From: a virus | Virus record (IMG/VR): IMGVR_UViG_3300033146_001182 | Span: 24,776 to 88,775 of that record | DNA: 64,000 nt | Direction: 5' to 3' (one strand) | Shown: piece after piece, positions 8,180 through 41,384 of the stretch | Layout of the letters: every line of letters begins with the position of its first letter | How positions within the stretch are numbered: the stretch's first letter is position 1 | Notes under the pieces: generated by a model | What the model was told of the DNA's origin: nothing | Databases searched by the model: none | The model's input: only the letters and a program-made list of their open reading frames with translations | Translations under genes and position numbers: made by a program

Positions 8180-8222
8180 GATAAATCTCCGAAAAAAAGG
8201 GTTATCACCAACTCACAAATCT

Positions 8223-16966: not shown

Positions 16967-17206
16967 TTATTTTGGTTTGGTTGAATTGAATAATACAGTC
17001 TTTTTAAGGATATTATAAGTTGCTGTAATATACAACATTTGTGTATGTGCTGCTGTGATATCTGTAGTTGTGAATGCCCATTTCCACATAGCAAGTCCAA
17101 ATGTCATCCAAAAAGCAACTCTACCAACAGACATATTTGTATATTCACCTTCTGGATTTCTTTCTGATATCAATGAAATAAAGAAGTTTGATTTTTTCTT
17201 TTCCAT
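16967..17206 (-). CDS. Putative holin
   Basis: Small hydrophobic protein (SVGRVAFW) upstream of spanins, under late promoters. Confidence 0.55.
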   Translation of the reverse strand: MEKKKSNFFISLISERNPEGEYTNMSVGRVAFWMTFGLAMWKWAFTTTDITAAHTQMLYITATYNILKKTVLFNSTKPK

Positions 17207-17223
17207 AATTCCCCCAATACACT

Positions 17224-17246
17224 TATTTATATTATAGGTATTTATA
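17224..17246 (-). promoter_or_regulatory. Two tandem T4-type late promoters
   Basis: TATAAATA at 17246-17239 and 17231-17224, heading the lysis/internal-protein operon. Confidence 0.7.
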
Positions 17247-17247
17247 T

Positions 17248-17282
17248 AAAAAAATAGGGTGATACCCGAAAGGCATCACCCC
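17248..17282 (-). terminator. Rho-independent terminator closing the Ubl cassette
   Basis: GGGTGATGCC-TTCG-GGTATCACCC-like hairpin followed by a T tract. Confidence 0.85.
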
Positions 17283-17309
17283 AATTTCATAGGAGGAAAT
17301 TAATTTTTA

Positions 17310-18419
17310 CTAATGAATAATTCTTATATTAACAGGTTCTTCTTCAACAATTTCTTCCTCTGTCAAATCACAGATTGAATCATCGTTGTCATCGGTATCA
17401 ATTTTAATATCAATACCATATGATACTTGGTGATAACCTGTTTGTCCACCAGTACCACTTTCTTCATCTTCGGTTGTCCAATTTTCAACTTCATTTTTTG
17501 TTGTATCTTCAATGGACTCCCATTCTTCCTCTTCCCATTCCTCATCAGTCATGACCATAGTTTGTTCTTCTTCCATTTGTTGAAGAAGATGAAGTTCTTG
17601 GTCAGCAGTTCCATCTTCAATCAATTCAGTAATATCATCATCTGAATAATATTTACTTAATGATGTACGAAGTTCTTTTTCCATTTTAGGAGTGTAATAC
17701 AAACCTGTTACTGGATGAAGATGTCGTGTTACAACATCTTTTGAAATTGAAGAATCAATATCACTAAAATGATTAACATAAACAGGACGATTGGAATTGA
17801 TTTTAGAAGTAAACTCTTTTTCAAAAGCATCTTCATCAAGAACTTTCTTATGTTTTACTGAAAAAGTCAAATCTTCAGCAAGAATATAAGAACCACAAAG
17901 GGTCTTCATTCTTACTTGTCCTTTAATTGGTGAAGAAGGGTTAGTTGAAACTACAATTGAAACATCATGGTTTTGATTAATATAAGCATCATCAGTTCCA
18001 CTAAAAAATGCTCCCATTGTATGGTGTGAATGGATAACACCAATGATTTTACGACCATCACTCCAACCATATTCAACATTATAAACATTAACTCCTGTTA
18101 CTTCTTGACTATCAGGAATAATAATATCAGTTACCAGAACATGTTTTTGTTCATGATTAACTTCACCTTCCAGATAAGCCAACCATTCCAAAGTTGGGTA
18201 ATAATCTTGAAGTTTTTTGATTTTCTCATCAGCCAAAACTTCAAATTCAACCTTATATTTAGGAACGGTCATATGACCACATGTTTTGATGATTTTAATA
18301 CCAGCATCCCAACAAGTATTTGCTGCGGCAATTTGTTTGGCAAATGCCCCACCCTTATTATGTTTTTTAATAAGTGCGTCCATTTCCTCATTGGTCATTG
18401 GTTTCAAATGATTTTTCAT
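17310..18419 (-). CDS. JAB/MPN+ metalloprotease (deubiquitinase-like) with acidic C-terminal tail
   Basis: EWLAYL (catalytic E) ... GVIHSHHTMGAFFSGTD = HxH-x7-S-x2-D. Confidence 0.9.
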   Translation of the reverse strand: MKNHLKPMTNEEMDALIKKHNKGGAFAKQIAAANTCWDAGIKIIKTCGHMTVPKYKVEFEVLADEKIKKLQDYYPTLEWLAYLEGEVNHEQKHVLVTDIIIPDSQEVTGVNVYNVEYGWSDGRKIIGVIHSHHTMGAFFSGTDDAYINQNHDVSIVVSTNPSSPIKGQVRMKTLCGSYILAEDLTFSVKHKKVLDEDAFEKEFTSKINSNRPVYVNHFSDIDSSISKDVVTRHLHPVTGLYYTPKMEKELRTSLSKYYSDDDITELIEDGTADQELHLLQQMEEEQTMVMTDEEWEEEEWESIEDTTKNEVENWTTEDEESGTGGQTGYHQVSYGIDIKIDTDDNDDSICDLTEEEIVEEEPVNIRIIH

Positions 18420-18441
18420 ATTAAATCCTTATAGTTTATTT

Positions 18442-18486
18442 GTTATCAGATGGGGCTAGTATAACCTAACCCCATGATTCTGTCAA
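18442..18486 (-). promoter_or_regulatory. Sigma70 promoter plus ATCTGATAAC leader for JAB gene
   Basis: TTGACA-17-TATACT-6 nt-ATCTGATAAC. Confidence 0.85.
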
Positions 18487-18488
18487 GA

Positions 18489-19082
18489 TTAAACAGAATA
18501 GAAATCTTTCAAATGACAACCCATTTCACCACCTGAATATTTCATTACTTTTCCAACAACCAGTGCGGCAGCCATAATGGCAGGAACAGCCCAAGATGGG
18601 GTAACACGATAACCATCTTGTGTATCACCAACATCCCAAGAAGCAACACGGTCATTGATAGACATACGTTCACCATCATAACCTGATTTTACATACTTAG
18701 CACCATTCTCATCTGCCATTCGTTGATTTTCAAGTTGTGATTTATGGTTATCAGTACAATCAATAACCCAATCAACATTTTTTGGATAAGTATGGTCTTT
18801 CAGTGGAAATGGAAATGCCTTCACTTTTGTATCAGGACGAAGTTGTTTAATAACAGTTTTGACAATATCAGCTTTATTTTTACCGATAAAATCAGCTGTT
18901 ACATCCAACCGATTAAGATTAGATTCTTCCAAAGTATCAGGGTCAAAAACATACAGTTCTTTGATACCAGACATTGCCAAAAGTTTAGCAACATGAAAAC
19001 CAATTCCGCCAGCACCAACTACTAATACTTTCAAATCAGTATTAATTCCTTCAATCAATTCTTGCCGATTGTAAATGGACAT
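18489..19082 (-). CDS. ThiF/E1-like adenylyltransferase
   Basis: VVGAGGIG, DPDTLEESNLNR, GKNKAD, VIDCTDN. Confidence 0.93.
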   Translation of the reverse strand: MSIYNRQELIEGINTDLKVLVVGAGGIGFHVAKLLAMSGIKELYVFDPDTLEESNLNRLDVTADFIGKNKADIVKTVIKQLRPDTKVKAFPFPLKDHTYPKNVDWVIDCTDNHKSQLENQRMADENGAKYVKSGYDGERMSINDRVASWDVGDTQDGYRVTPSWAVPAIMAAALVVGKVMKYSGGEMGCHLKDFYSV

Positions 19083-19103
19083 AATTTTTTCCTTTCAAAT
19101 AAT

Positions 19104-19149
19104 CGTTATCAGATAGATATATAATACGAAATTAAGTTTGATTTGTCAA
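19104..19149 (-). promoter_or_regulatory. Sigma70 promoter plus ATCTGATAACG leader for E1 gene
   Basis: TTGACA-17-TATTAT-6 nt-ATCTGATAACG. Confidence 0.85.
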
Positions 19150-19191
19150 GAAAAGATTGGGCGAAATAAATCACCCAATCTTTCCTCATTA

Positions 19192-20052
19192 TCAGGTTGA
19201 CCAGACAGAACCAACATTATCTGATACATCTTGTGTGATACCAGACCGTTCATCTGCCCTTGAGACAGAATACTGGACATCTTCACCACGATTAAGAAGA
19301 TGTTGTTGGAGGGTTGAAAGTCTAGGCAATCCTGTTGGTGTGGTAGTTCCTGGTGATGCTGAATTGACATTTTCCAAAACAACCAAGGCTTCACGACCAA
19401 TTGCCAAAATATCATCAGGTGAAGACCAAGTTTGTGGATGTCGCCAATCACCCCAACAATCAGAAGAACGACCCATTGCGTGATAATGTGAAAACTTATC
19501 TAATCCAATGGTTTTACGGACGATAACTTCATTTACACGGTCATCTTCTGTTTTAATTTCAATAGTAACAGGTGAAATAAGACGTTTGGAGTATTTTGGT
19601 TCAATTGGACGACCATCAACATATTTTGGCCAGTATACACCTTGATACAACCAAACCATACGACCATTACCATTTGAAACAACAGACAAACCAGCTTTTG
19701 CGTGTTCACGAGTAATATTTGGCATAATATTACTTGAGTTCAATCGTTCCTGTAATTCACGTTCTTTTTCTTCATAATCCATACGGTTTTGTTCAACCAT
19801 ATAAGACATTTCTGACATTTTTTCATTCAGAACTGATTTGATTTGTTGAAGTTTTTCGGTAAGTTTAGCAGAATATTCTGCCCGAATATCGTCTTCTGGT
19901 AGAGAAAATTCCTCAGTAATTTCAAGTTTCACCACCCGTCCACCGATACGAACAGTCATTCCCTCAGATTTTACGTCATCAATTGAAACACTATCAAGAG
20001 TGTTATCAATAGAATCTTTAATATCTTCAACAACAGATGTATCCCAAGCCAT
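19192..20052 (-). CDS. Putative E2 (UBC-fold) conjugating enzyme with N-terminal coiled coil
   Basis: FSHYHAMGRSSDCWGDW resembles E2 HPN/HPH...C; downstream helix then LENVNSASP resembles E2 N..SP; its only Cys; lies between Ubl and E1. Confidence 0.65.
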   Translation of the reverse strand: MAWDTSVVEDIKDSIDNTLDSVSIDDVKSEGMTVRIGGRVVKLEITEEFSLPEDDIRAEYSAKLTEKLQQIKSVLNEKMSEMSYMVEQNRMDYEEKERELQERLNSSNIMPNITREHAKAGLSVVSNGNGRMVWLYQGVYWPKYVDGRPIEPKYSKRLISPVTIEIKTEDDRVNEVIVRKTIGLDKFSHYHAMGRSSDCWGDWRHPQTWSSPDDILAIGREALVVLENVNSASPGTTTPTGLPRLSTLQQHLLNRGEDVQYSVSRADERSGITQDVSDNVGSVWST

Positions 20053-20071
20053 AATGTTTTCCTTTCTTTTT

Positions 20072-20117
20072 CGTTATCAGATGAATATATAATACTATTC
20101 TTTTCAGGTGGTGTCAA
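20072..20117 (-). promoter_or_regulatory. Sigma70 promoter plus ATCTGATAACG leader for E2-like gene
   Basis: TTGACA-17-TATTAT-6 nt-ATCTGATAACG. Confidence 0.85.
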
Positions 20118-20121
20118 GAGG

Positions 20122-20163
20122 AAAAAATACAGGATTGAGGTTTTAATTCAATCCTGTATTTTT
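20122..20163 (-). terminator. Terminator after Ubl gene
   Basis: AAAAATACAGGATTGA...TCAATCCTGTATTTTT inverted repeat. Confidence 0.8.
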
Positions 20164-20182
20164 AATTGAAGTTACGTTATTT

Positions 20183-20395
20183 CTAACCAGCCACTTCATA
20201 AGGCTTAATTTCCAGTGCCATGCCACTTTCCATATTAGCTGGAGCAGTAGCAGGGTCAATTTCCGAACCATTCAGAATAACACGGAATTTCCCAAGTCCA
20301 GCATCTTTTGCGGCACTAATTACGGTATCTTTGAAGGAAGTTCCCTCAGTGATGGTAGAAGTAGAACCATTGATAGTCAGAGTTGCGTTTGCCAT
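20183..20395 (-). CDS. Ubiquitin-like beta-grasp protein (70 aa, C-terminal ...YEVAG)
   Basis: Beta-beta-alpha-beta pattern, FRVILNGSEI, LEIKP then free C-terminal Gly; upstream of E2/E1/JAB. Confidence 0.8.
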   Translation of the reverse strand: MANATLTINGSTSTITEGTSFKDTVISAAKDAGLGKFRVILNGSEIDPATAPANMESGMALEIKPYEVAG

Positions 20396-20443
20396 AATAT
20401 TTCTCCTATTTAAGTTGTGGGATATTTCCCGTTGATGATTAGT

Positions 20444-20539
20444 ATAATAACCAATCTAAAATCATTTGTCAATACTTTTTTATTTTTTATTTTTCCCGAA
20501 GACAAGTAAGATAATAACAAAATCATCTTACTCTGTCAA
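20444..20539 (-). promoter_or_regulatory. Two tandem sigma70 promoters for the Ubl gene
   Basis: TTGACA-17-TATTAT at 20539-20511 and 20472-20444; A-rich UP-like tract before the proximal one. Confidence 0.85.
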
Positions 20540-20545
20540 CGATTT

Positions 20546-21001
20546 TTATTCAACATTCCATGATTTATTTTCTTCAATTTTGTTAAGATCCCCTAATGGA
20601 AGACCACAACTTTTTCTAAGAAAATTCCAACCATAGATACGACCATTTGTATCAAAATCTGGTTTTTCAATCAATTTAATGTCATCAGTTGACCACATAT
20701 TTTGATTTTTTTGTACCATTTCAATCCATTGAACATATTGAGTATGATAATCGTAATATCTATCAATATCAGCTTGTGTTGGATTGATAGTAAGGTCTTC
20801 ATTTAGAATGATTTTTAATTGTTCATCAACATATTCTTGTGCTTTAACAACATCATAAACATTTTTTAATAATTTAACATCTTCTTCTGTTAGTTGAACT
20901 GGTTGATTTTGTTGAACTTTTTCTTGTTCATTAATTTTTTTAATTTCGTCAGATAATAACCACCGTTCTATTTTACCACTTAGATTTTTGAAAAATCCCA
21001 T
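20546..21001 (-). CDS. Hypothetical protein
   Basis: ORF with RBS. Confidence 0.65.
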   Translation of the reverse strand: MGFFKNLSGKIERWLLSDEIKKINEQEKVQQNQPVQLTEEDVKLLKNVYDVVKAQEYVDEQLKIILNEDLTINPTQADIDRYYDYHTQYVQWIEMVQKNQNMWSTDDIKLIEKPDFDTNGRIYGWNFLRKSCGLPLGDLNKIEENKSWNVE

Positions 21002-21016
21002 AACTAACCCTTTCCG

Positions 21017-21754
21017 TTATTCTTCTAATTTAGATAATAGGTAATACTTTTCACTACTGTCATTATTTTCAAATAATACCATACCAGCACCTTGTGCGTC
21101 AACCCAAGTAAACTTTGCAGTAAAATTATTTAGGTTTTCATTGATACATTGTAATACAGCATTAAAGTTCTTAAAATCAAAACAAATATCAATATCATCA
21201 TGATCAATTTCACCCAATTCAAAATTGATTCCATTGGCAAACCGATTGGTTCTATCAGTTGTTTCCACACTAAACTTTTTATCTTTTACTGTAAAATAAA
21301 CTTTTTCAAACTTACCAGCAACTTTACGGATTTTATCAAAATATTCACCAACTTCTGGTGTCAATTCAAGTTCATAAAATGCAGGAATATTTGGTTCTTG
21401 TCCAGTGAATGTAGTGACAAATGAAGACATACAAAAATGAAGATTTGTTCTATGCCTACCATCCTTCAATGTTAATTTATCATCTGTTACTATAGCATTT
21501 ACTGTTTCACTATCAATGAGATTAAGATACGGTTTAACCTTCATATTAGGTTCATCAAAATTAAGTTCAATTTCACCTTGAATTTCATTGATGGCTTCGT
21601 TTTTTAAGTCAAGATAAACAACAACTGTATTATTGGCACTCCTCATTTTTGTTGTAATTTTCTCATTATCAGCTTTTAACTGAACAGATGGAATTACATA
21701 ATTAAGAGTTGCTTTCTTAATAACTTCCTGTAATTGTTCTACATTTATAATCAT
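21017..21754 (-). CDS. 45: Sliding clamp (gp45/PCNA-like)
   Basis: 245 aa two-domain clamp pattern, ends YYLLSKLEE; near clamp loader genes. Confidence 0.75.
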   Translation of the reverse strand: MIINVEQLQEVIKKATLNYVIPSVQLKADNEKITTKMRSANNTVVVYLDLKNEAINEIQGEIELNFDEPNMKVKPYLNLIDSETVNAIVTDDKLTLKDGRHRTNLHFCMSSFVTTFTGQEPNIPAFYELELTPEVGEYFDKIRKVAGKFEKVYFTVKDKKFSVETTDRTNRFANGINFELGEIDHDDIDICFDFKNFNAVLQCINENLNNFTAKFTWVDAQGAGMVLFENNDSSEKYYLLSKLEE

Positions 21755-21818: not shown

Positions 21819-22097
21819 TCAACTATTTTTTGTAGTCCAAACTTTTTCAGATTTTCGTTTTTTTAATTCACCAAGATAGGAATGAAGAAGGAATTGTTGT
21901 TTTACTGTAGGTTTGAACTTCTTCAACATTAAACCAGCACAAAAAGCATTAATAATTGTCCAAGTATTGAATTCAAAATCAATTACACAAGCAATATTCA
22001 TGGCAAATATAATAGCACATAAAAAACTCCATAGTTCTTCTTTGTAAATCAATTTTGTAATACCTTTAATTTCTTCATCTAAGTTCAACTTGTCCAT
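21819..22097 (-). CDS. Small membrane protein
   Basis: Two hydrophobic segments. Confidence 0.6.
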   Translation of the reverse strand: MDKLNLDEEIKGITKLIYKEELWSFLCAIIFAMNIACVIDFEFNTWTIINAFCAGLMLKKFKPTVKQQFLLHSYLGELKKRKSEKVWTTKNS

Positions 22098-22600
22098 AAT
22101 TCCACCTTTCTGTTTGGGTTCAATGTAATTAACTTACCTTTTAAGCCACTTGTTTTAACTGATTTAATATTATTTTCACCATATACAACTAAACAACTTG
22201 GTGCATTTGCCGTATTAGTAATCTTACCAGAAATATGATGAAACTTCAACCTTCCTTTGAAAAAAAATATCGCATCTGCCTTATTCCATATTTGTTCATG
22301 AAATCCAATAGTTTCAGTTCTAGCAAATATTAAACCAATACCATTACCGTGTTTATGTAATTTTTCCATCCATTTGAAAGTTTCTCTCCCATAAGGTGGA
22401 TTACACCATACTCTACCATACCATTCTTGTCGTAAACCATTATCTAATGTTGAATAATGATTTTTTGCTGTATCCCAAGGTCTTACATCAGGAAGTGGTG
22501 AACATGGGTCTAAATCAAACTCACCTAATGATTCAATAATATATGGTGGAGTTAACCATTCTTCTTTATTGTGTGTATTTGTATTAAAATCTTTAGACAT
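22085..22600 (-). CDS. Phage DNA N6-adenine methyltransferase
   Basis: EWLTP, FDLDPC, VWCNPPY, FFKGRLKF. Confidence 0.9.
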   Translation of the reverse strand: MSKDFNTNTHNKEEWLTPPYIIESLGEFDLDPCSPLPDVRPWDTAKNHYSTLDNGLRQEWYGRVWCNPPYGRETFKWMEKLHKHGNGIGLIFARTETIGFHEQIWNKADAIFFFKGRLKFHHISGKITNTANAPSCLVVYGENNIKSVKTSGLKGKLITLNPNRKVELWTS

Positions 22601-30014: not shown

Positions 30015-30202
30015 CTTTTAATAAATTCTACACAATCAAACTCTATTGATGTATATAACCTTGACTTCTTTACATCAACAGGACTGAACTTGTCATTTTC
30101 ACATTCTCTTATATTATTATGAACTATACAATAAACACAATCTTTACATAAATTAGTTGTGTTTAATTTACAATTATCTAATTGGATAAATTCTTGTATC
30201 AT
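30011..30202 (-). CDS. Small Cys-rich protein
   Basis: CKDCVYC motif. Confidence 0.55.
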   Translation of the reverse strand: MIQEFIQLDNCKLNTTNLCKDCVYCIVHNNIRECENDKFSPVDVKKSRLYTSIEFDCVEFIKR

Positions 30203-30452
30203 TCTTTAATTCATCCTTAATTCTTTTTGGAAATAAATCATAAAACTGTTGAATATCTTCATCTTCCACTACGCCAAACCAATCTCTCATAAACAAAACT
30301 ACCTCCGTGGGGGATACGTCTTCTTCCATTAACCCATCATAAATTTTAATAATTGCTCTTTTTAATGATTGTGACACAGCTTGTCGGGAAATATTTAGTT
30401 CTCGTGCAATTTCAGAACCCGTCTTGGCTTGAACATATTCAACATTTTTCAT
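30174..30452 (-). CDS. Sigma70 region-4-like HTH protein
   Basis: TGSEIARELNISRQAVSQSLKRAIIKI; own TTGACA-17-TATATT promoter (30511-30483). Confidence 0.8.
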   Translation of the reverse strand: MKNVEYVQAKTGSEIARELNISRQAVSQSLKRAIIKIYDGLMEEDVSPTEVVLFMRDWFGVVEDEDIQQFYDLFPKRIKDELKNDTRIYPIR

Positions 30453-30519
30453 ACATTTCTCCTTTGGTTAGATGTTTTTGTTAATATATCACAATATAAT
30501 TTCATTGTCAAATCTTTTT

Positions 30520-40693: not shown

Positions 40694-40745
40694 AATTTAT
40701 CTCCTTTTCGTTATCAATACAGTTTAATGTAAATGAATTAGTATG

Positions 40746-41384
40746 TCAATATGAACCACCATCAATATCTCCACCAACTTCCATAAAATATGTGGAATCA
40801 TGATCTAATAAATCAGCATCTAATCCAGAACCAGAACCATCTACAGTTTTTATTTTGGTTAATATATCATTAGCAGTATATGTAGATGAATCCAATTTAC
40901 TATCCAATTCAGTTTGTAAATTGTCAATATTTGAAATTATATGATTATGACTATCATCATTAATTGAAACAGAAATAGAAACATTGTCAGAACCATCAAA
41001 AGAAGTAGATCCTGTTGCATCACCTGTTAATGATATTGTTCTGGCTATTTGTAACTTTGAGGCAGAAACAGCATTTTCTGTTGCGCCAAGTTTGCCATTA
41101 ATTATATTCATTGTTGCATCTGAAATTTTAACACCAGATGTACCAACAGTTAATGTTGTTCCATCAGGATCAACTGACATTACACCACTGTTTAAATTTA
41201 ATCCATCACCAGCAGTAATGACTGTTCCGCCAGATAATTCAACAATACTTGCTGTTCCATCATCTTTTTTAATAAACAATTTTCCATCATAAGTATTAAT
41301 TGCTAATTCACCTAATTCCAAATCAGCAGTTGTTGGAACTTTACCAGATGTTGATGTACTTTTATTTTTAATTATATGGGCCAT
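40746..41384 (-). CDS. Tail fibre/baseplate-associated structural protein
   Basis: GELAINTYDGKLF, ASKLQIARTISLTGDATGS.SFDGS, DGSGSGLDADLLD, IDGGSY tail-fibre motifs. Confidence 0.8.
   Translation of the reverse strand: MAHIIKNKSTSTSGKVPTTADLELGELAINTYDGKLFIKKDDGTASIVELSGGTVITAGDGLNLNSGVMSVDPDGTTLTVGTSGVKISDATMNIINGKLGATENAVSASKLQIARTISLTGDATGSTSFDGSDNVSISVSINDDSHNHIISNIDNLQTELDSKLDSSTYTANDILTKIKTVDGSGSGLDADLLDHDSTYFMEVGGDIDGGSY

Follow-up and report, generated by a model that had tools for sequence, protein, structure and literature searches.

An identical ten-base box at the predicted transcript starts of three ubiquitin-like-system enzyme genes in a putative distant T4-like phage

This study describes a 10-nt box, ATCTGATAAC, that is repeated without change at the predicted transcript starts of three enzyme genes of a viral ubiquitin-like protein (Ubl) system, namely those for an E2-like protein, an E1 and a JAB protein. 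The DNA analysed is a stretch of 64,000 nt (the window) comprising bases 24776–88775 of the 88,775-bp IMG/VR record IMGVR_UViG_3300033146_001182; the record holds about one third of the genome, and statements made here for the genome apply to that third. On the minus strand, each of the three genes is preceded by the same layout, which consists of TTGACA, a spacer of 17 nt, a −10 hexamer (TATTAT for E2 and E1, TATACT for JAB), six variable bases and ATCTGATAAC, with +1 predicted from promoter geometry alone. As our tentative best explanation, ATCTGATAAC would be a selected cis element at the predicted transcript start, which spread among neighbouring promoter-early stem-loop (PeSL) cassettes by short-patch recombination and is probably read by a candidate factor acting on DNA or on 5′ RNA.

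The box on the three promoters is real and lies far beyond chance. In the whole 88,775-bp contig, the minus strand has three exact copies of the 10-mer, all at these sites, and the plus strand has none; the coordinates at which a preliminary description of the window had placed the same 10-nt leader, each copy behind its own TTGACA-17 promoter, were all borne out. One-mismatch neighbours of ATCTGATAAC are at chance level in the window (12 found and 8.93 expected; 13 of 100 shuffles reached 12), and the promoter pattern TTGACA-N16–18-TAYNNT was matched 15 times with 4.19 expected (none of 100 shuffles reached 15). The five promoters of the cassette, of which two precede the Ubl gene, each match the consensus at 11 of 12 positions with 17-nt spacers and are the top five consensus sites within 17000–21100; their spacers are unrelated, as had been noted before (4/17 for E2 and E1 and 3/17 for E2 and JAB, counted by hand from the alignment). 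The leaders of 22 credible promoters, picked by hand from pattern matches (the majority of the 99 matches in one scan were dropped) and mostly lying between genes, a short way upstream of a start codon, were compared over positions 7–16 after the −10. Nine of the 231 pairs were identical at 10/10 and all others at no more than eight positions; three of the nine come from the E2/E1/JAB trio and the other six from a second leader family. Three-way identity over ten columns has a probability of ~9e-11, which becomes ~1e-7 after allowing for 1540 triples.

Between E2 and E1, the identity is contiguous from the −10 hexamer to +12 (22 of 24 positions) and includes bases without an expected function, and the patch shared by JAB is exactly 10–11 nt long, with unrelated flanks on either side. 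The register of the box puts Y at −1 and A at the predicted +1, and the other strong promoters of the contig have quite different starts. In one further comparison (run X2), a 2,910-nt contig covers the E1 and JAB boxes with 44 differences over 17300–19157; changes at 19115 and 19102 flank the E1 box and none of the differences listed falls inside either box, a result that says little, since ten unchanged bases are expected anyway at 2.4% divergence. The promoters, boxes, stem-loops and genes of the cassette are collected in Table 1.

Table 1. Predicted features of the cassette and of the second box family (window positions).
Feature	Positions	Strand	Description
E2 promoter	20089–20117	−	TTGACA (20117–20112), 17 nt, TATTAT (20094–20089); discriminator ATATTC; gene ATG 20052
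Start-site box at E2	20071–20082	−	ATCTGATAAC (20082–20073) plus GA; predicted +1 to +12
E1 promoter	19121–19149	−	TTGACA (19149–19144), 17 nt, TATTAT (19126–19121); discriminator ATATCT; gene ATG 19082
Start-site box at E1	19103–19114	−	ATCTGATAAC (19114–19105) plus GA; within a −13 to +13 tract copying the E2 promoter
JAB promoter	18458–18486	−	TTGACA (18486–18481), 17 nt, TATACT (18463–18458); discriminator AGCCCC; gene ATG 18419
Start-site box at JAB	18442–18451	−	ATCTGATAAC
Ubl promoter P1	20511–20539	−	TTGACA-17-TATTAT, TG before the −10 (extended −10), 11/12; stem-loop across spacer and −10
Ubl promoter P2	20444–20472	−	TTGACA-17-TATTAT; leader start ATCAACG; same arrangement in L001
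Ubl P1 stem-loop	20495–20535 (folded)	−	−12.3 kcal/mol, z −3.8; across spacer and −10
Ubl leader 5′ hairpin	20419–20430	−	GGGAAATATCCC; −5.2 kcal/mol, z −1.2; CAC next
Ubl terminator hairpin and T run	20123–20163	−	−18.7 kcal/mol, z −8.9; 0/200 shuffles as stable
E2 terminator hairpin	19150–19185	−	Followed by TTTTC; −21.9 kcal/mol, z −6.9
Stem-loop enclosing the JAB −10	18451–18474	−	−18.7 kcal/mol, z −4.9; PeSL class 'overlapping the −10'
Intrinsic terminator after JAB	17255–17283	−	13 pairs, loop 3, T run
Ubl gene	20183–20395	−	70 aa, C-terminal PYEVAG
E2-like gene	19192–20052	−	286 aa; long N-terminal helix (~108 residues), then UBC-like domain
E1 gene	18489–19082	−	197 aa, ThiF family; Pfam PF00899 E 1.2e-27; PADLOC E1-E2 models E 1.5e-18
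JAB gene	17310–18419	−	369 aa; Pfam PF14464 Prok-JAB E 1.4e-8
Second-family box	8196–8219	−	TTTGTGAGTTGGTGATAACCCTTT, after a sigma-70 promoter; related loci L069–L072

The closest relative (L001/L007/L014/L015) is 90% identical in E1, 69% in E2 and 60% in JAB, and the synonymous divergence (dS) between the window and L001 is ~1, with third-codon identities of 0.49–0.70 in nine genes. Across this distance, the E2 promoter keeps ATCTGATAACGA at 12 of 12 positions along with identical −35 and −10 hexamers, and the spacer agrees at 11 of 17 positions and the discriminator at 4 of 6. That all ten bases are unchanged at E2 has a probability of ~0.004–0.02 by our own estimate (neutral identity 0.58–0.67), and in this single pairwise comparison the box at E2 looks constrained. 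The L001 leaders are ATCTCTCATAGG at E1 and ATATTAAACAC at JAB, and the JAB leader of L039, a fragment that is closer in the E1 tail, is ATCTTAAACAC; the JAB start-site position itself reads ATCTTAAACA in L039, ATATTAAACA in L001 and ATAGTCAGTT in L016, and the JAB box differs from the leader of the closest relatives at 4 of 10 positions. From −13 to +13, the E1 promoter of the window matches the E2 promoter of the window at 23/26 positions and that of L001 at 24/26, and matches the orthologous E1 promoter of L001 at 13/26 (hand count). By parsimony, the box would have stood first at E2 and would later have been copied to E1, with a visible tract, and to JAB, as a patch of 10–11 nt, because L001 keeps the box at E2 and lacks the E1 and JAB copies, and because the E1 tract is paralogous.

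A wider scan for a promoter followed by ATCTGATAAC, which the preliminary description had proposed as a way to more members of a regulon, brought no further regulon from the contig or from the viral and prokaryotic collections. In whole-record searches the exact box was found once in G001 and was absent from G002 (235.8 kb, 98% complete) and G003; the scan of the viral contig collection returned the L001 contig alone, and the scan of prokaryotic genome contigs gave 27 scattered single matches in unrelated taxa, without a cassette and at about chance level. Two small groups among the prokaryotic matches have nearly the same promoter sequence and look like one orthologous promoter each.

The available text of Arbiol et al. 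(2010; PMC2839356) describes the PeSLs of T4-type phages as strong sigma-70-like promoters combined with stem-loops, often of the form GGGG...CCCC, which are placed upstream, between the boxes or across the −10. Such cassettes are described as reaching from the upstream stop codon to the downstream Shine–Dalgarno sequence and start codon and as recombining mutually (PMC2839356; Comeau et al., 2014, PMC4122927), and PeSLs as sites of homologous exchange for which short patches of homology suffice (PMC2839356). The Ubl, E2-like, E1 and JAB genes are assigned as separate early transcription units of the PeSL type, because their near-consensus sigma-70 promoters and stem-loops match this description. 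The likeness extends from the five sites at 11/12 with 17-nt spacers to the stable stem-loops that accompany the promoters, either ahead of the −35 or over the −10 (−12.3 to −21.9 kcal/mol, z −3.8 to −8.9), with GGGG...CCCC stems, and to the intergenic position of the cassettes, which run from upstream stop to downstream Shine–Dalgarno sequence and start and recur ahead of one accessory gene after another in a T4-like phage; adjacent cassettes share sequence here too. The stem-loop across the JAB −10 is also found in six relatives, in which 94.4% of 54 cells are paired and 3 of 9 pairs are compensatory (41–56% in slid controls). However, this phage is only distantly T4-like (clamp loader ~33%), and the block shared here lies downstream of the −10, outside the description in the available text of PMC2839356, the figures or supplements of which may show conservation there. 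Of the recombination, gene shuffling or mini-circle formation expected of PeSLs, the paralogous E2/E1 promoter tract would be an indirect sign at most, with gene order conserved with L001.

The preliminary description did not include the PeSL architecture, in which neighbouring cassettes exchange sequence, but its view that the cassette is not a simple operon agrees with units bounded by promoters, with strong stem-loops after Ubl and E2 and one across the JAB −10, and with the TTGACA promoters found gene by gene in L001, L002, L003 and L016 and partly in L006. It had also correctly assigned to the Ubl gene two tandem promoters, a terminator of its own and a leader with ATCAACG. The E2 and E1 genes are spaced by no more than 20 nt or overlap, as in an ordinary operon, in 11 of the 13 more distant loci with both genes placed (L010–L012, L020, L023, L026, L032, L034, L036, L038 and L040), whereas the clade of the window has gaps of 108–826 nt with promoters and terminators; the split into single-gene units is therefore read as the derived state.

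A second box, TTTGTGAGTTGGTGATAACCCTTT, follows the −10 of three promoters of the contig at genome positions 5580, 6890 and 33026 (window 8251), with a decayed fourth copy at genome position 7371, and the proteins encoded downstream are mutually unrelated. In the phage fragment G004 it recurs at five promoters and as a near-variant at one more, G001 has a single copy, and the 24 nt of the box are invariant in 7/7 aligned copies from three phage records; fold and alignment analysis of this leader gave no supported RNA structure. Of the two boxes, TTTGTGAGTTGGTGATAACCCTTT rather than ATCTGATAAC is the better candidate to be a leader element bound by a protein. Both families, as well as one further promoter (window 40749), have the heptamer TGATAAC in common, and its distance to the −10 differs between the two families. 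In the available third of the genome, the exact 10-mer is specific to the three enzyme genes, but the core TGATAAC also follows four promoters that belong to unrelated genes. A promoter followed by TGATAAC within 3–16 nt was found seven times in G000, twice in G001 and six times in G004 (0, 0 and 1 with reversed-pattern controls), and was found neither in G002 nor in G003. The further promoter (TTGACA-17-TAAACT, window 40716–40749, minus strand) has the leader TGATAACGAAAAGGAG, of which 12 nt (TGATAACGAAAA) are common with the E2 leader, and precedes an open reading frame (ORF) of 210 aa with a GTG start.

On these counts, the start-site boxes are a habit of one sub-clade, a restriction that argues for a reader specific to the sub-clade and not for a general property of RNA polymerase. 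As a speculative and rather unlikely extension, a sub-clade of uncultured T4-like phages would sort its early promoters by start-site boxes (ATCTGATAAC and TTTGTGAGTTGGTGATAACCCTTT, both with TGATAAC) that are read by a candidate phage or host factor on DNA or 5′ RNA, and the phage-borne Ubl system would have taken up one class as a joint switch for its three enzymes, apart from the Ubl substrate. Besides the −35, TGn, −10 and UP elements, the early promoters of phage T4 itself have 'additional regions of consensus', and T4 promoters with identical core elements can respond differently (Hinton, 2010; PMC2988021). In the available text of that review such regions are general to early promoters, whereas here two boxes mark subsets of promoters in one sub-clade.

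A mechanism for the favoured reading, each step of which is inferred from sequence comparison, may be outlined as follows. The box would be ancestral on the E2 promoter, and in the lineage of the window short-patch recombination between adjacent cassettes would have copied it onto the E1 and JAB promoters, with the result that the three enzyme genes share an initial transcribed sequence and Ubl retains its own stronger signals. The early promoters of the sub-clade would carry invariant start-site boxes that share TGATAAC, and a factor specific to the sub-clade may bind either DNA, at an operator that takes in +1, or the unstructured mRNA at its first ten bases, and may thereby switch or tune the three enzyme genes jointly, for example at early shut-off.

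Operators can overlap the transcription start of strong promoters. The likeness to such operators is a short identical sequence from +1 to +10 on several promoters in the manner of a regulon, and the same site does stand at the same position on three promoters, as expected of a common operator; however, the site here has no convincing dyad or repeat, the binding protein is hypothetical and the closest relative keeps one of the three sites. When Fur, IHF, DnaA, cre, a −10-like pause element and an anti-Shine–Dalgarno sequence were compared with the box by eye through their consensus sequences, none fitted all three copies.

Several further points weigh against a selected and factor-read element. 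Its position relative to +1 is a predicted one, the three copies are adjacent, as local gene conversion alone would yield, the test of constraint at E2 is one pairwise comparison and ~35% of the genome is covered. L001 and L039 lack the box at E1 and JAB, and L002, L003, L006 and L016 lack it at E2, E1 and JAB alike. Its dyad, ATC-N-GAT, has only 3+3 bases, and ATCWGAT occurs 28+28 times in the contig, which makes the palindromic core put forward earlier a weak point; no convincing operator-type dyad or repeat symmetry was found in ATCTGATAAC. A comparison of ORFs gave no candidate for a factor restricted to box-bearing phages: G000 and G004 have 6 of 146 crude ORFs in common, and 14 ORFs have a counterpart in the box-bearing relative G001 and none in the near-complete, box-free G002, among them a DNA methyltransferase gene (phrog_111) at window 22085–22600 on the minus strand.

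The main rival, possible but less probable than the favoured reading, is that the identity arose neutrally, through recombination or gene conversion among adjacent PeSL cassettes, and has no function of its own. PeSLs are described as exchanging through short homology (available text of PMC2839356), and the present cassettes share TTGACA, TATTAT and nearby bases. The contiguous E2/E1 tract with its bases of no expected function, the lack of E1 and JAB copies in both L001 and L039, and the position of the copies, which flank E2 and E1 as direct repeats, are all consistent with cassette exchange. A footprint of this kind would not readily explain why 12/12 bases were kept at E2 across a dS of ~1 while the flanks diverged, why the JAB patch is limited to exactly 10–11 nt between two unrelated flanks, or why a second, fully invariant box is found on scattered unrelated genes in three phage records. 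An examination of single-gene exchange by dS found all genes near saturation (0.74–2.4), at which recent exchange is not judgeable.

Escape limits strong near-consensus promoters. It is conceivable, though unlikely, that the box acts without any factor, as an initial transcribed sequence that sets start choice and promoter escape by host RNA polymerase and so equalises three equally strong promoters. The bases at −1 and at the predicted +1, where the box begins, are Y and A, each of the three core promoters reaches 11/12 with a 17-nt spacer, and ATCT is found in the same register at cassette promoters of relatives (L001 E1, L002 E1 and L039 JAB). However, effects on escape need no exact 10-mer, the other strong promoters of the contig start quite differently and the two families do not place TGATAAC equally far from the −10.

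It is far less probable that the box is a palindromic operator bound by the helix-turn-helix (HTH) protein encoded at 30174–30452, the regulator suggested in the preliminary description. This protein of 92 aa has a sigma-70 region 4-like HTH (Pfam PF04545, E 1e-5) and its own TTGACA promoter at 30511, but the palindrome has 3+3 bases, and homologues with 56–73% identity are encoded in G001, G002 and G003, of which G002 and G003 hold neither the box nor a promoter-linked TGATAAC, so that the suggested regulator occurs in relatives entirely without the motif. The AT-rich composition is all that speaks for chance or for a structured element in the RNA, such as a riboswitch or a hairpin in the leader, and both are refuted for practical purposes by the probability of ~1e-7 and by leaders whose folds, at 0, −1.7 and −1.7 kcal/mol, are not more stable than those of shuffles (z 0 or above) and which gave no Rfam match at E up to 1 besides an unrelated weak small-RNA row.

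The identities of the E1 and JAB proteins are secure from their family matches. The AlphaFold2 model of Ubl (mean confidence, pLDDT, 85) has a predicted beta-grasp fold, with ThiS, SUMO and ubiquitin as the top Foldseek rows (best E 4.9e-3, probability 1.00, TM score 0.59), and its terminal AG is invariant, with 1–4 additional residues after AG in relatives. The E2-like protein (AlphaFold2 model pLDDT 75) matched no Pfam or PADLOC family, and Foldseek gave no row at E up to 1e-3. In a wide VIA search, 4 of the 50 rows shown covered residues 105/109 to 252/273, and each of these was a UBC E2 protein, with modest Z values for the C-terminal domain (UbcH10 6.2 with 118 residues aligned, Pex4p 5.8, UbcH7 5.7 and E2S 5.5), and H189, Y190, H191 and C199 are invariant in 19 sequences; the E2-like label for this modelled protein, though reasonable, falls short of proof. 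Bil-type bacterial operons encode the same four types of protein (available text of bioRxiv 10.1101/2023.09.26.559546), namely a Ubl with a beta-grasp fold and a C-terminal Gly, an E1 of the ThiF family, an E2 that is UBC-like and a JAB peptidase, whereas here the carrier is a lytic-type phage, the transcription units hold single genes, and the E2 carries a long helix at its N-terminus and matched neither Pfam nor PADLOC.

The expression signals of Ubl outnumber those of the enzyme genes, with two promoters (one with an extended −10), a GGAG Shine–Dalgarno sequence, a 5′ hairpin and its own terminator, and it is plausible that Ubl is made in excess of the enzymes. A hairpin with different stems stands at the equivalent place in 6/6 leaders of relatives folded singly, each of them weak, and the hairpin may stabilise the Ubl mRNA.

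The record is a single viral contig, classed as linear and ~35% complete, with a G+C content of 29%. We take it to be part of the genome of a large phage distantly related to T4 because the cassette lies among T4-like replication genes (sliding clamp, clamp loader, gp32-type single-stranded DNA-binding protein, primase, DnaB-type helicase, ribonucleotide reductase and family B polymerase), because the clamp loader is ~33% identical to those of named T4-like phages and cyanomyoviruses, and because relatives of the cassette sit on contigs of 160–240 kb. Within the JAB gene, 53 nt (window 17985–18037) are 90.6% identical to a hypothetical gene of the crAss-like Bacteroides phages DAC15 and DAC17, which is the sole nucleotide match of the cassette to named phages.

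In conclusion, whether or not it is functional, the box is weak evidence for the unity of the system, and the earlier idea that it independently supports one functional system gains little from it, as it is unconserved at E1 and JAB in the closest relatives and adds little beside synteny; the gene order of the cassette, conserved in many relatives, already shows this unity and is far stronger evidence for it. If the box is only a footprint of recombination, it would be a small example of concerted evolution between neighbouring cassettes. If it is functional, it would add a start-site layer to PeSL cassettes, which the available descriptions present as promoter plus stem-loop, and would offer a simple way to study the timing and balance of a Ubl conjugation machine in a lytic phage, with the enzymes controlled jointly and the substrate separately.

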